Position numbers and translations under genes: made by a program
Part shown: piece after piece, positions 24,703 to 42,103 of the stretch
Numbering within the stretch: position 1 is the first letter of the stretch
Layout: every line of letters begins with the position of its first letter
Source: an uncultured Chloroflexia bacterium
Lineage (GTDB): Bacteria; Chloroflexota; Limnocylindria; Limnocylindrales; CSP1-4
DNA: 64,000 bases
Direction of reading: 5' to 3'
Assembly (NCBI GenBank): GCA_963827965.1
Contig: CAWHCW010000018.1
Location: 120,454 to 184,453, forward strand
The notes under the pieces: model-generated
Seen by the model: only the letters and a program-made list of their open reading frames with translations
What the model was told of the DNA's origin: nothing
The model's database searches: none

Positions 24703-27196
24703 TCAGGGTCCCAGCGGCGTCGTGCGGTCGGACACGAAGCGGTCGAGGTAGACGGTCCCGCTCATGCCGTTCGCCAGCCCGCCGGATGGGCCGAGGCGAA
24801 CCTCATCGACCCGGTAGGCGCTCGTGTCGAGGCCCGGGAGCGTCGCCGCCGCGATGCCGTTGACGAGCAGGCTGAAGGCCGTGCTCGTGCCAGACGTCCA
24901 GGCCATCTCGAGGGCCGTCGGCGCGTCCGCGATGGTGACCCAGGCCGTGGTGGAGGTGCCGCTCCTGCGGGCCACGCTCGCCCGGGCCTGGGGCACGCCG
25001 GCCGACGTGCGCCGGTACTGGAGCCGGAAGATCGTCGTCCCACCGGCGTTGCGGCCGACGAAGACGTCGATGATCCCGTTGTTCGGCGTCGTCGTGCCGT
25101 TGGCGGCGAACGAGAACCGGGCGCGGTACGCGGCCTGGGCGGCCGGCGTGGCGTCGACCACGTAGCCGGCGCTCTTGCCGGCGACGGTGGCCGCCAGCCC
25201 GAACCGGCCGGCGGCCGCCGCGGCGGCGGTGACGGCGAGGCGGGTGCCGCCCGAGGCAGACGTCCAGCCAGCCGTCGTCCCGGACTCGAAGCCGTTCGGC
25301 GAAGATCCCGTCGGTGGGCGTGACCGCCAGCACGAGCGGGGTCGTGGTCCCCCAGTTCCCGGCTCCGTCGCGGGCCCTGAGCCACAGGACGTGCTCGCCG
25401 TAGGACAGGCCGGCGGTGGCGACCGAGCCCGTCAGCGCCTCCGAGGTGCCCCCGAAGGCGCCGTCTGCGGCCGCGAGCGGCACGCCGCCGCCTGGCCCCG
25501 GGTCGGCGCCCTCGAACCACTCCGCGGCGACGATCGGGGAAGGCCCCCCGGGGCTGGCCGGGTCGGTGGCAGTCGCCGTCACGGCGACGCTCGCCCCGCC
25601 CTGGCTCGGCGTCGGGATGGCGCTTGCGCCGGTCACGGACGGGGGGCGCGGGGTCGGGCGTCGGGGTCGGAGTGGGCGTCGGGGTCGGCGTCGGCGTCGG
25701 CGTGGGCGTCGGCGTCGGCGTCGGCGTCGGCGTCGGCGTCGGGCGTCGGAGTGGGCGTCGGCGTCGGGGTCGGGCCGCCGGCGAGCAGGTCGTGCGCGGC
25801 GAGGACATCGAGCCGGCCGTACCCGTAGCTGTTGTCGGGGCCGGCGATCCCCAGGTCCCGCGCGGAGCCGGTGAGCGCGGCCGCCTGGGACGAGGCGGCT
25901 CAGCGCCCGGGTGGGCGCTGAGGAGCAGCGCCAGGGCCCCCGCGACATGCGGCGCCGCGATGGACGTCCCGGTCGCCGACTGGTACAGGCCGAAGAGGTC
26001 CGCCGTCCGGACACTCACCCCCGGGGCGACGACCTCCGGGTACGTCGTCGAGGCCTCGCCGCAGGCCGACGGGCCGCGGCTGGAGCCCGCGTCGACGACG
26101 TCGCTGCCGTTGGTCGCGCCGACGGCGAGCGCCTCCGGGTAGTTCGCCGGGCTGACGCTCGTCGAGCTGCCGGGCCCGAAGTTGCCGGCCGCGAAGACGG
26201 GCACGATCTCGGCCGCACGGAGCGCCTGCAGGTCGGCCTGGAAGGCGAGGTTGCAGCCGGGCGAGCCGTAGGCCCACGAGTTGTTGACGACCTGCGGCGC
26301 GTCGGCGGTCGCCGGGTTGCCATCCGGGTCGAGGACCCACTGGAAGGCGGCGTGGATGGCCGTGGCGGTTGCCGTGCCGCTGTCGTTGAAGATCTTCGCC
26401 GCCATCCACGTGGCGCCGGGCGCCATGCCGATCGACGTGCCGCCGGCGTCACCGCCCACGATGACACCCATCGTGGCGGTCCCGTGGCCGCTCAGGTCGG
26501 TCGGGGTCGTCGGGTGCTGGCCGTACGGGTCGAACCAGGAGTTCGAGCCTCCGCGCCAGCGCGCCGCCAGGTCCGGGTGGCCGACGTCCACGCCCGAATC
26601 GAGGCTCGCGACGACGACGCCCTGGCCGGTGTACCCGAGGGCCCACAGGGCCGGGGCGTTGACGAGCGCGATGTTCGGCTCCGTCGGGGCCGACGACGCC
26701 GGGGCGGTCGCCGCGATGCGAAGGGGCTCCCGGGCGCCCGCGGGCACGATCGGGATCTCGTCCGGCGTGACGCTCGCCACGTCGGCCCGGGCCGCGATCG
26801 CTGCGATCACGGCGGGGGTCGCGGTGATCGACAGGCCGTTGAAGACCCAGAACGGGGTCACCCGGGCGACCTGGCCGAGCGCCCGCTGGACCAGAAGGAC
26901 GGCGACCAGGGGAGACTGCGACGCCGCGGCCTGGTCACGGAGCGCCTGGATGAGGGTGGTCAGCCGGGCGGCGCGATCGGCGCCCTGGATCGATCGCGAG
27001 GTCGGCCTGCGCCCGCATGGTGACGATGACGGTCCTCATCCCGGCCGGCGTGGCTGCGCCGGCCGGGGCCGAAGCCGCCGTGAAGGTGGTGGCGCGGCGG
27101 TCGCCCTGGCCCGCATGAGATCGTTCCCGCGGCCACGACGGGCACGGTCGAAACCAGGAGAGCGGCCCCCAGGGCCAGGGCGACGATCCGCCGCAT
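24703..27196 (-). pseudogene. secreted subtilisin-like (S8) protease with I9 propeptide, (Thr-Pro)n linker, Ig-like module and LamG-like C-terminus; several frame breaks
   Basis: The ATG at 27196 follows a GGAG. The signal is MRRIVALALGAALLVSTVPVVAAG. The catalytic blocks are VVASLDSGVD, SGHGTATMG and GTSIAAPHVAG (ORF 24762..26861). The C-terminal 152 aa (ORF 24703..25161) look concanavalin/LamG-like. Confidence 0.85.
25653..25775 (-). repeat. tandem hexanucleotide repeat (GGCGTC)n encoding a (Thr-Pro)n linker in the S8 protease
   Basis: About 20 near-perfect GGCGTC/GGGGTC/GTGGGC units occur on the plus strand. One minus frame reads PTPTPT..., and one 7-nt unit (gggcgtc) breaks the period. 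Confidence 0.85.
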
Positions 27197-27209
27197 CGGA
27201 AATCTCCAG

Positions 27210-27789
27210 TCAGCTCTGGGCGTCGATGGGTGCCGAGGCGGATCCCGTCGATCACGACCGAGACGCCGGTGCCGCGCTGGATCGACCCCGCCCGAGTTCG
27301 GGTAGAGGAGGAAGTAGGTCGCGCCGTCGAGGAGCGTCAGTCTTGTGGGCCATCGGCTTGCGGGTCGCTGAGGACGGCGCCGGTGGTCTCGACGAACAGC
27401 TCCGGCATGGACGCCGAGTCGTGGAGGACGTGGCCCGCCTTGTCCTTGTCGACGACGGTGAAGCGAAGGTCGACCAGACCGCCCGTCGGCGGTCACCGCG
27501 ACGAGGTTGACCCGGATGCCGTACTCCTGCTCCATGTCGGCGGCGGACACGACGCGCGCCGCCGTTGCGTTGCGAGGCCGGCCGTTCGACCTCGCCAGCG
27601 GTGTAGGAGAGGGTCGCCGCCACGATGAGCGGCAGGACCAGTACGGCCGGCGATGGCCGCGATCCACGTGCGTCGGATGGAGAGGCGGCCGCGCCGGCCG
27701 CCCTCCACGTCGGCCGGGGCGTCGTCCCCGGCTTCCGGGACCGCAGCCGCGAGGCTGCGGTCCCGCTCGGTTCGATCGATGCTCGTCAT
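27210..27789 (-). pseudogene. small N-terminally anchored extracytoplasmic protein, unknown function; seven +1 frame breaks
   Basis: The ATG is at 27789 (MTSIDRTERDRS...). A TM helix (IAAIAGVLVLPLIVAA) is followed by GIRVNLVAVTADGGLVDLRFTVVDKDKAGHVLHDSASMPELFVETTGAVL, LTLLDGATYFLLYPNSGG and VSVVIDGIRLG. The frames step 0,2,1,0,2,1,0,2. The length is 580 = 3x191+7. Confidence 0.55.
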
Positions 27790-40105: not shown

Positions 40106-40113
40106 CGTCGCGG

Positions 40114-42103
40114 TCACTTGCCACCTCCCTGCCCGGCCCGGGGCGGGCCGCTGGCATCGGGTCCTGGGGTTGGATTGGCCTGGGTCGGCGGCCCGCCCAT
40201 GCCGGTCGGCGCGATCGTCGGCGCCGCGCCGGTCGGCGTCGGGACCAGTGGAGCGGCGGCCACGACGACCGTGACCGTGGTCGGGCGGCCAAGCACCGCC
40301 GGCTGGCCGGCGCCCGTGGCGCGCTCGAGGCTGAGCAGGAGGAGGTAGGTCCCGGGTTCCGTGGGGACCGGTCCGGAGAGCCAGGTCGTCTGCGCGGCCG
40401 CGGCCGGAACGGAGAGCTCGCGGGTCATCGGCGCGGCCGGGCCGGTGCCCGCGAGGGCGACCCAGCGACCCGTCAGCCGGACGGTCGAACAGGCGGCGGC
40501 GCCGTCCGGGCCGTCGGTTCGCGTTTCCGACGCGCAGATGCCCCAGGCGGTCGGCTCTCCGTTCGTGACCACGACCTGGACCGCTGCCAGCGTCCCGGCC
40601 GTGACCGACATGGCTGGCGGCGCCTCCAGCCACGCGGCGCCCGGGCCGCCGACGTGGACGACGACACCCGGGATGGAGGCCTGGACCGCGTACGGGAGAG
40701 CGACGCCGTCACGGTCGTGGAGCGTGACCTCGAGGCGGTACCGGCCGCTCGTCGCCGGCAGGGTCACGGCTCCCGCGATGCTGCCATCGGCGACCGTCGC
40801 GGGGACGACGTCGACGAGCGACGCGGCCGACTCGCGGGCAACAAGGGTCGGATCGTCCGCGCCCGGCGCGGGGCTGGCGGCGGGACCGGGGCTGGCCGCG
40901 GGATCCCGGCCGGCCGCAACGTCGGGGCTGGCCGCGGGATCCTGGCCGGTCGCGGGGTCTGCGCCCTGCGTCGGACCGGCCGGGGGGCTCGCCTCGTCGA
41001 GCGGGATCCAGCGGGTGCCCAGTCGGTATGCAACCCCGAGCTGGACCCCGGCAGGCACCTCCACGGGCACCCGCAGCGGGACCGTGGAGGCGGCCAGCAG
41101 CATCCCCGCGAGCGCCGGCGTGCCCGGTCGCGACCCGAGATCGAACGGGTCGGGCGCGGCGGACGGCTGTGGCGGCAGGACGATCTCCCAGCCGCCCGGC
41201 GGTGTGACCGCCACGGGCGGCGGGCCGGCCGGGTCGGCCGCGCGTGCCGCCGCTCCGCGGGCGACCTCGTCGGCGCGCAGATCCGCCCGCGCCACGAGCG
41301 ACCGGTAGAAGCCGCCCTGGCGGTCGGTCGGATCCAGCAGCGCGGTGAGCCCCGCGGTTCGCACGCTCGGGAACGCCAGCACGTGATCGTGGAAGCTGGG
41401 GGCCGCCCGCCAGATCTGCTCGAGGGTGCCCCTGCCCGCGAGGATCGCCCGCACGTAGTGCGCCGGCCCCAGGAACGCATCGGCCAGGACGGCCGCGGCA
41501 CCCGCCGCCAGCCACCCGGCGGCGAAGTTGTCGACGCGCTGCGTCGCGACGTCCAGCGTCCCCTCGGGCAATCCTGGCTCGGAATTGCCGGACGCGTAGC
41601 AGAGATGACTCAGGACCACGATGGCGTTCGGGGCCAGGCGCACCGCGCGGGCGAGGTAGGACTCGCCGAAGTACTGGTGGGCCACGTTGTCCACGCCGGC
41701 GACCGGGTTCAGGCCCAGGCCGTTCTGCGTCCTCGGGTTCAGCGCCCGGCTGTACCGGCTGGGCCAGCCGTTGCCGTGGCCCAGGTAGACGACGATGGAC
41801 GCCCCACGCAGGGCATCCTCCGTCGCGGCCCACGTGGCGTTCGGCGAGTAGACCGTGACGACGTCGTCGGTGAACCGGCGCGCCTCGGCGGCGGCCTTCT
41901 CGGCGTCGGCGCGGTAGCTCGACGTCAGCCTTCCGACCGGGCCGACGATGATGGCGACGCGCGGCGCGGCGGCCTCGGCGCCCGCAGCGCCGAAGCGGCG
42001 CCGCGGCCACGACGAGGATCGGGGCCATGAGCGCGACCGAAAGCAGCCGGAGGCCCAGGCGCAGGAGCGCGCCGGTCACCCCCGGTCGGGCGGCGCCATG
42101 CAC
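40114..42103 (-). pseudogene. secreted protein of unknown function with GHG...C motif pair and Ala/Pro-rich linker; at least one frame break; start tentative
   Basis: ORF 40114..41694 is extended upstream in the same frame (VVYLGHGNGWPS...VVLSHLCYASGNSEPG). A signal-like N-terminus (GALLRLGLRLLSVALMAPILVVAAAP) lies one frame over, from the GTG at 42103. The linker contains DPAASP repeats at about 40850-40960. Confidence 0.55.

Follow-up and report, generated by a model that had tools for sequence, protein, structure and literature searches.

The window analyzed here is a stretch of 64,000 nt from an uncultured Chloroflexia bacterium (contig CAWHCW010000018.1, positions 120,454 to 184,453 of the forward strand; G+C 68-78%), and the subject of this work is a cluster of eight genes on its minus strand (24703-42103), named g1-g8 in transcription order and listed in Table 1. 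In an ordinary open reading frame (ORF) listing, the region from 27 to 40 kb yields only fragments, no gene there being an intact ORF, and a frame plot of third-position GC content jumps between frames every few hundred bases. The genes were repaired with a codon-usage model trained on the clean ORFs of the window itself, and the resulting Viterbi path was cut at start and stop landmarks. The path revealed continuous minus-strand coding from ~42.1 down to 24.7 kb with ~100 frame switches and two in-frame stops, and the coding run is also backed by homology to intact relatives. The closest relative fetched, locus L001 (contig_9252 of the metagenome-assembled genome (MAG) MFD02199.bin.2.5, labelled uncultured Chloroflexia), carries the same genes as clean ORFs. 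A co-directional minus-strand run of this extent had been proposed in an earlier interpretation of the DNA (the sequence-only reading), with which both the path and the homology agree; that reading counted nine genes, whereas we find eight, which is also the number in its own list. The g1/g2 and g3/g4 junctions abut or overlap, g2 and g3 are separated by ~70 nt and the other genes by ~20-50 nt, in line with the spacing of 0-70 nt given earlier, and the 317-nt gap reported upstream of the cluster is present. Being co-directional, joined by short or overlapping junctions and conserved together, the genes have the properties of an operon at the sequence level. No promoter-like sites were found and terminator-like matches occurred at background level, in a scan that is uninformative in DNA of 70+% GC.

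Table 1. Genes of the cluster and neighboring features, with positions in the window and the basis of each assignment.
Feature	Position	Strand	Description	Basis
g1	40114..42103	-	Secreted protein, lineage-specific accessory	Stop-free frame 42075-40117; start uncertain, frame break near 41998
g2	39466..40119	-	Polytopic membrane protein, lineage-specific accessory	tblastn to L001 h2, 73-75% identity, two frames
g3 (giant)	33821..39397	-	Giant secreted protein, ~1850 aa, core	Pfam SdrD_B, polysaccharide-lyase-type fn3, Beta_helix
g4 (A)	32360..33824	-	Multicopper oxidase subunit A, Tat-exported, two cupredoxin domains, core	Pfam Cu-oxidase_2/_3, Cu-oxidase, TAT_signal
g5 (B)	30947..32333	-	Multicopper oxidase subunit B, Sec signal, paralogue of A, core	Pfam Cu-oxidase_3
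g6 (C)	27837..30926	-	Subunit C, two cupredoxin domains without conserved copper ligands, core	Pfam Cu-oxidase_3, Cu-oxidase, Big_13/Y_Y_Y
g7 (anchor)	27210..27789 (ends approximate)	-	Small single-pass membrane protein, Ig-like beta-sandwich ectodomain, core	tblastn
g8 (protease)	24703..27196	-	Secreted subtilase (Peptidase_S8), core	Pfam Peptidase_S8, E 1e-44
tRNA-Gln	22207-22281		Only tRNA in the window	
Upstream NarL-type two-component system	42425..43849	-	HisKA_3 kinase fragment and receiver/GerE regulator	Translation
Second, divergent NarL-type two-component system	44117..45963	+	Membrane HisKA_3 kinase and regulator	Translation

Domain calls were made with Pfam on the repaired proteins, and they bear out the earlier ones: the giant has SdrD_B and Beta_helix, A, B and C each have Cu-oxidase domains, accompanied by a TAT signal in A and by Big_13/Y_Y_Y in C, and g8 matches Peptidase_S8. 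Profile comparisons indicate that A, B and C are paralogues sharing a two-domain cupredoxin layout (A-B hhalign probability 99.7%; C-A E 4e-21; C-B E 1.8e-52). In family alignments of 46-54 non-redundant members per protein, the copper ligands are distributed unequally among them. For A, the Cu-oxidase_2, Cu-oxidase_3 and Cu-oxidase profiles all score above their cut-offs, and H158-x-x-H161-x-H163, H203-C204-H205, H211 and M216 (numbering of the homologue in locus L006), all in domain 1, are invariant in 54 of 54 members. These motifs are the canonical HxxHxH and HCHx(n)Hx4M, which provide a type-1 site, with all its ligands (H158, C204, H211 and M216) present in each of the 54, and four histidines of the trinuclear cluster. 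Domain 2 of A has neither an HxH pair nor any ligand motif, and A alone falls short of a full site, having only the HxH of 161/163 and the H-C-H of 203/205. B has ligands in its second domain, where H322-P-H324 and H428 are found in 53 of 53 members and H426, the first His of an HNH motif, in 52 of 53; its domain 1 has none, and the protein has no type-1 Cys. The HPH and HNH motifs of B are the two HxH pairs missing from A, and A and B summed possess the type-1 site and all eight cluster histidines. No conserved His, Cys or Met was found in the cupredoxin part of C in the family alignment, which together with the hhalign result supports the earlier description of C as ligand-less. The ligand motifs are replaced in the partner proteins: HWHGF of A corresponds to SI-FPGQ in B and LLFQGQ in C, and YPFHPHG of B aligns with EAAMTLAG of A. 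B had previously been taken as merely multicopper oxidase (MCO)-like. Since its four histidines are precisely the ones missing from the trinuclear cluster in A, the picture shifts from three oxidases to one split oxidase.

In two-domain MCOs, the trinuclear cluster is formed where domain 1 of one chain meets domain 2 of its neighbor in a trimeric ring. Like A, B and C, the homotrimeric members of this class (3G5W, the blue copper oxidase from Nitrosomonas europaea; 2ZWN, the metagenomic mgLAC; SLAC from Streptomyces) have two cupredoxin domains per chain, and the 'type C' two-domain MCOs have their type-1 site in domain 1, as in A. However, every chain of the homotrimers carries all ligands, giving three active sites, whereas in the cluster the ligands are confined to domain 1 of A and domain 2 of B, and C has none. 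With ligands split in this way there would be at most one site per A-B-C unit, and no chain would be active alone. Searches of PDB sequences returned nothing close; for A and B the matches were local (~70-175 residues) and belonged to two-domain MCOs and NirK, the closest for A being the two-domain MCOs 3g5w and 2zwn. A two-domain MCO described in the literature as a 'heterotrimer' was considered and set aside, as it consists of proteolytic forms of one archaeal protein. The oxidase of the cluster should work like a two-domain MCO, with an architecture resembling ceruloplasmin or MnxG. We lean slightly towards the view that the six-gene core g3-g8 (giant, A, B, C, small anchored protein and S8 protease) encodes an extracytoplasmic copper oxidase with its catalytic centre split between two polypeptides.

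Signal and anchor sequences were judged by hydropathy and motif alone, on intact homologues. A twin-arginine motif is present in 61 of 74 A proteins, compared with at most 16% in the other families, and two conserved Cys pairs in B are consistent with Sec export. Of the eight N-terminal signal or anchor sequences read earlier, those of B, C, the giant and the protease are recovered by these means as Sec-like N-termini. Following its cupredoxin domains, C contains Ig-like repeats of the Big_13/Y_Y_Y type and then two C-terminal copies of a ~110-aa module (27840-28541; …FSTxG…ADDADIYxW…VDG…QDEDVV…W…FDGS…DIDA…) that belongs to no Pfam family. A similar pattern appears in the alignment consensus at the C-terminus of the giant, and this resemblance suggests a shared docking or binding module.

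Beta-sandwich domains (SdrD_B, CarboxypepD_reg/SpaA-like, TIG) follow one another through the N-terminal half of the giant, and the C-terminal third forms a right-handed beta-helix with invariant acidic (D/E)-GGG motifs on its stacked rungs. It is 56-66% identical across phyla over its full length of ~1850 residues, a degree of constraint that, judged from the alignments, appears to fit an enzyme, or a complex subunit under tight constraint, better than a generic adhesin. The protein contains 0.9% His and 1.1% Met, and a PDB profile search gave no solved relative beyond the SdrD B domain. It does not qualify as an SdrD-type MSCRAMM, as it has only one B-type domain and scores 23.5 bits with the NCBIfam model against a cut-off of 2500; an LPXTG-type sorting signal was not seen. 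The small protein encoded by g7 was modelled with AlphaFold2 (AF2) as a transmembrane helix and a beta-sandwich (pLDDT 79.5), for which neither a significant Foldseek match nor a Pfam match was obtained. Most members have a His or Met in one loop, no residue of which is invariant. Apparent fusions of g7 with Ig-like or I9 domains were rejected as informative, since they look like gene-call run-ons across neighboring genes. The subtilase has an I9-like propeptide and a Pro/Thr/Asp-rich linker, together with an Ig-like domain and, at the C-terminus, a jelly-roll-like one, and shares Ig-like modules with C. Its catalytic Asp and Ser motifs are found in 52 of 53 members; the His motif, searched with a narrow pattern, is found in 30 of 53, and the window copy has it (SGHGTA).

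At least 591 stretches among one-genome-per-species bacterial and archaeal contigs encode a relative of A. The best 80 of these, with 10-kb flanks, served as the locus sample in which neighborhoods were checked. When the eight repaired proteins were compared with 83 loci by tblastn, A was present in all 83, B and C in 82 each, the giant in 79, the protease in 69, the anchor in 65, g2 in five and g1 in one, with A and B co-occurring in 82. Most absent core-gene matches fall in loci shorter than 20 kb, i.e. cut by contig ends. In the 55 non-redundant loci with adequate flank, all six core genes were found in 52, and in 50 the order and strand are identical; the giant-A-B-C junctions have median gaps of 1-11 nt, and the giant, directly upstream of A, is translationally coupled to it. 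This recurrence of the core is beyond chance. The sequence-only reading had treated the genes as a genuine unit, a view that would have been undermined had they been scattered in related genomes. The genes of the core do stay together, whereas g1 and g2, which had been included in the unit, lie outside it. The same order of giant, A, B, C, small protein and protease is seen in a Chloroflexota MAG and in a betaproteobacterium, and the core occurs in Chloroflexota, Actinomycetota, Beta- and Gammaproteobacteria, Myxococcota-type 'delta' MAGs and Acidobacteriota. Among the hosts are cultured members of Cryobacterium, Nocardioides, Actinotalea, Xylanimonas and Phycicoccus, along with many MAGs of Anaerolineae, Caldilineae and Ardenticatenia. 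More than 3000 homologues of A, with 58-78% identity, were found in Chloroflexota, Acidimicrobiales, Anaeromyxobacteraceae, Caldilineaceae and a Vitreoscilla/Ideonella-like betaproteobacterium, and a library of 1.84 billion proteins contains 1613 representatives of the g7 family at 50% identity. A plasmid collection contained no match to A at E <= 1e-40.

The surroundings of the core vary with lineage. A response regulator lies beside the cluster in 45 loci, mostly upstream and on the same strand, and histidine kinases in 24 and 20 loci; these regulators are of the OmpR/HisKA type in Actinomycetota and of the NarL/HisKA_3 type in Chloroflexota. In 26 loci, mostly actinobacterial, a CopC-CopD fusion of ~600 aa with both Pfam domains above cut-off is encoded between g7 and the protease gene (for example L057 16306-18189). 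In 15 loci, mostly Chloroflexota MAGs, a second g7 paralogue is found instead, and most of these paralogues are joined to a polytopic membrane domain. An example of a second copy of the anchor ectodomain, located between the small anchor and the protease, is L056 12753-13622.

The sequence-only reading had proposed an extracellular oxidative or surface-modifying machine. An extracellular copper-dependent oxidative machine is still the best reading, sharpened here to a split, heteromeric MCO. That A, B and C form an obligate heterotrimeric MCO, in which a single active site is shared by two gene products and which is the catalytic heart of a widespread, unnamed extracellular machine, is a proposal to which we give an even chance. 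As part of the same joint reading, this machine would also need the giant beta-helix protein as a partner and the dedicated protease. In the mechanism that we envisage, A, B and C would assemble as a pseudo-threefold ring of six domains, with domain 1 of A and domain 2 of B forming the sole active interface and C closing the ring, its Ig-like and repeat modules serving for attachment. Electrons from the substrate would enter at the type-1 copper of A and reach the shared cluster by way of the Cys-His bridge, and O2 would be reduced to water there. Since A would be exported folded through Tat, and B, C, the giant and the protease through Sec, assembly and at least part of the copper loading would take place outside the membrane. 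Such extracytoplasmic loading could explain the CopC-CopD copper-uptake gene of the actinobacterial versions, and likewise the small membrane-anchored protein, which we guess to be an anchor and/or a means of copper hand-over. The giant would most likely be a platform that binds a polymeric or surface substrate, or would itself be the substrate; the subtilase would most likely process one of these partners, and the adjacent two-component system would switch the set on.

Several points weigh against this proposal. The A/B interface is assumed by analogy with the homotrimeric two-domain MCOs, and the stoichiometry could be other than 1:1:1. Searches of solved structures gave no catalytic clue for the giant. 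Apart from the start Met, the g7 protein has no conserved (>=85%) His, Cys or Met, which weakens a role as copper carrier, and CopC-CopD is absent from the lineage of the window itself. Moreover, the cluster copy of the window cannot be translated without repair.

A decaying pseudogene cluster with no function in this organism would account for the last of these points. The frames of the cluster genes (~15 kb) are broken by ~100-165 single-base indels, mostly extra bases, with ~37 breaks in the giant gene, and the cluster has 9-18 breaks per 2 kb, a higher density than is seen over most of the remaining window (0-9). Bacterial pseudogenes are usually reported to show a deletion bias. The indels seen here are, on the contrary, overwhelmingly one-base insertions: along 25656-40231, which is colinear with L001 at 83.8% nucleotide identity, 123 one-base extras were counted in the window versus 42 in L001. 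In gene B, which has a mean column identity of 96% with L001, 11 of 11 indels are one-base insertions in the window, with no homopolymer association visible by eye in the alignment. Only two in-frame stops occur across the whole run, and the breaks extend through the window, affecting in like manner a presumably essential gene, that for glutaminyl-tRNA synthetase (20447-22120), as well as metabolic genes beyond 50 kb. The frame breaks are most likely sequence errors and not gene decay, because gene B without the extra bases has no in-frame stop and a dN/dS of 0.28 versus L001, the mark of purifying selection on the window copy. Pseudogene decay was accordingly rejected as the principal explanation on the insertion excess and this dN/dS, and we regard it as highly improbable. 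From these comparisons we conclude that the organism should have working copies of the cluster genes and that it is the sequence of the window that is rich in errors.

Three other functions can be considered for an intact cluster. Copper resistance or homeostasis of the Cop/Cue type would place the MCO-like proteins outside the membrane to oxidize Cu(I) or take up surplus copper by binding it, with CopC-CopD and a CopRS-like system handling and sensing copper and the giant serving as a copper sponge or surface shield. The classical copABCD-copRS operon combines an MCO, CopC, CopD and a two-component system, and the same combination is encountered in actinobacterial versions of the cluster, many of which have an OmpR-type regulator and a HisKA kinase beside the core in addition to the CopC-CopD fusion found inside it in the 26 loci. 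The cluster nevertheless lacks CopB and a Met-rich MCO of the CopA type: the Met content of A, B and C is 1.1-2.2%, with no Met-rich copper-binding run of the CopA/CueO kind in the consensus sequences, and the low His and Met content of the giant argues against a sponge. In the neighborhoods examined, no efflux ATPase or CopB was linked to the core, and many versions, including the window and other Chloroflexota loci with their NarL-type regulators, have no CopC-CopD. Cop systems have no counterpart of the giant, C, the anchor or the protease, and no known place for a giant beta-helix protein and a subtilase, and we consider this function unlikely. About as unlikely, in our judgment, is a role in cell-surface assembly, with the giant as a surface, sheath or matrix protein that is trimmed by the subtilase and cross-linked (e.g. 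Tyr-Tyr) or attached to wall polymers by the oxidase, the anchor holding the enzymes in place. The adhesin-type beta-sandwich domains and beta-helix of the giant, its translational coupling to A and the Ig-like modules common to C and the protease, which could dock on the same scaffold, are in keeping with such a role, and filamentous bacteria of sludge or soil account for many of the host taxa. Many others, such as Nocardioides and Cryobacterium, are non-filamentous, however; the cross-phylum identity of the giant is unusually high for a structural surface protein, and the missing LPXTG-like signal and the score with the SdrD adhesin model (23 bits, far below the cut-off) also speak against such a role. 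An extracellular Mn(II) or Fe(II) oxidase, with the giant templating or binding the mineral product, appears less probable still. It draws on the Mnx complex of Bacillus (MnxG with MnxE/MnxF), in which the MCO depends for its activity on a multi-protein complex, encoded in one operon and located at the cell surface; the cluster likewise combines a multi-subunit MCO with accessory proteins in one operon, its hosts come from soil, groundwater and sludge, and acidic residues are stacked on the rungs of the beta-helix. MnxG differs in having a complete site, MnxE and MnxF are small non-cupredoxin proteins, and Mnx has no giant beta-helix, subtilase or split site. Beyond the cupredoxin fold, the cluster proteins have no sequence relation to MnxG, MnxE/F, MofA or MoxA; a site for a metal substrate was not identified, and a literature search gave no link between the clusters of these taxa and metal oxidation.

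The split copper oxidase can also be compared with systems that come closer to its predicted architecture. In ceruloplasmin, six cupredoxin domains form a ring whose one trinuclear cluster lies at a single interface, and the predicted A-B-C ring would resemble it and the other six-domain MCOs and their relatives (hephaestin, MnxG, coagulation factors V and VIII) in having one cluster and several ligand-free domains. The six-domain proteins are single polypeptides, whereas here the ring would be built from three gene products, and A, B and C have no detectable sequence relationship to them beyond the fold. In the iodide oxidase IoxA/IoxC, an operon encodes a complete MCO and a copper-motif-free paralogue that co-purify; it differs in that IoxA has all four copper-binding regions, the other accessory genes are not the same and there are no complementary half-sites. 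As far as we could find, all described MCOs have a complete active site in one polypeptide. The earlier statement that the gene set matches no recognized pathway is upheld: none of the six core proteins has a model of its own in NCBIfam (June 2026), which was used as a check against curated families and gave only generic, sub-threshold matches to MCO, nitrite reductase and subtilase models, the PDB contained nothing close, and no description of this gene set was found in the full-text literature.

MCOs rank among the best-studied metalloenzymes, with uses that range from lignin chemistry and biofuel cells to metal cycling and copper homeostasis. If the proposal is true, the cluster would represent a free-standing heteromeric form, architecturally between the homotrimeric two-domain oxidases and the single-chain six-domain oxidases such as ceruloplasmin. 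The split site, together with a paralogue reduced to a dead spacer, would be a natural case of a homomeric ring turning heteromeric and a living model for the path proposed from two-domain to six-domain copper oxidases. The cluster is far from rare and is carried by abundant lineages of soil, groundwater and wastewater, yet it has no name, and several cultured hosts (among them Xylanimonas sp. McL0601, with an intact set in CP187527 at 3,352,046-3,373,356, Nocardioides taihuensis, Cryobacterium algoricola, Phycicoccus sonneratiae and Actinotalea sp.) allow direct testing.

The accessory gene g1 encodes an N-terminal alpha/beta domain followed by Ig-like beta-sandwich domains. H96 (YLGHGNG) and C155 (LCYASG) are invariant in 41 sequences, and in the AF2 model the His follows strand 3 and the Cys strand 4 of the alpha/beta domain. 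This placement, as modelled, is that of caspase/gingipain-type (clan CD) peptidases and may indicate a catalytic dyad, which we treat as a lead only. No Pfam match, including to peptidase families, and no PDB sequence match was obtained. Foldseek returned mainly Ig/FN3-like beta-sandwich and macroglobulin-type structures (TMq <=0.21, aligned region unreported) and no clan CD peptidase; we assign these matches to the beta-sandwich part at the C-terminus. The family numbers at least 1596 proteins, every one of them hypothetical. Homologues near the cluster are located downstream of the protease in L007 and beyond two regulators in L085 and L086, and L001 has a remnant. The closest homologue (70% identity; L084 6971-9889) is found beside a small cupredoxin-like gene, a Tat-signal protein and a NarL-type system, with no oxidase cluster, a context that may be a second, independent link of the g1 family to copper proteins. 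In the five loci that have g2, it is located upstream of the giant, and these belong to the lineage of the window only (L001, L006, L007 and duplicates). The product had been described as a His-rich polytopic membrane protein. Hydropathy and composition support the polytopic part, with about four transmembrane-like segments, but not the His-richness, the content being 2.8% with a local His cluster in the first loop. There was no significant Pfam match.

Upstream of g1, the two adjoining NarL-type two-component systems reported earlier are recovered in translation. The first, co-directional with the cluster, is likely its regulator; the second pair also adjoins the cluster in L001, L085 and L086. 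Downstream of the protease gene lies a convergent gene (23210-24126, plus strand) for a secreted, apparently repeat-containing protein; as it has no counterpart beside the cluster in L001, it marks the end of the unit. The tRNA-Gln noted near the block is also present. The G+C content of the cluster is ~70-71%, compared with 72-77% in most of the adjacent DNA, and from 28000 to 40000 the plus strand has a GC skew of +0.10 to +0.13 and a negative AT skew. Together with protein identities of 55-65% across phyla, these values would agree with a cluster that has spread horizontally. Neither an integrase nor a repeat boundary was noticed. A genomic island near tRNA-Gln was considered and rejected, given the lack of an integrase in the flanking translations, the housekeeping neighbors (glnS, sugar metabolism) and the modest drop in GC. 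Among the frame-broken genes further along the window is an operon of the xanthine dehydrogenase family (region 51730-63829). Two very similar zinc-type alcohol-dehydrogenase-like genes are found on opposite strands at ~50650-51682 (plus) and ~54800-55818 (minus); both translations begin VSETMQALVVLEP…, and the pair flanks a pyruvate-phosphate-dikinase-like gene and a short-chain dehydrogenase.

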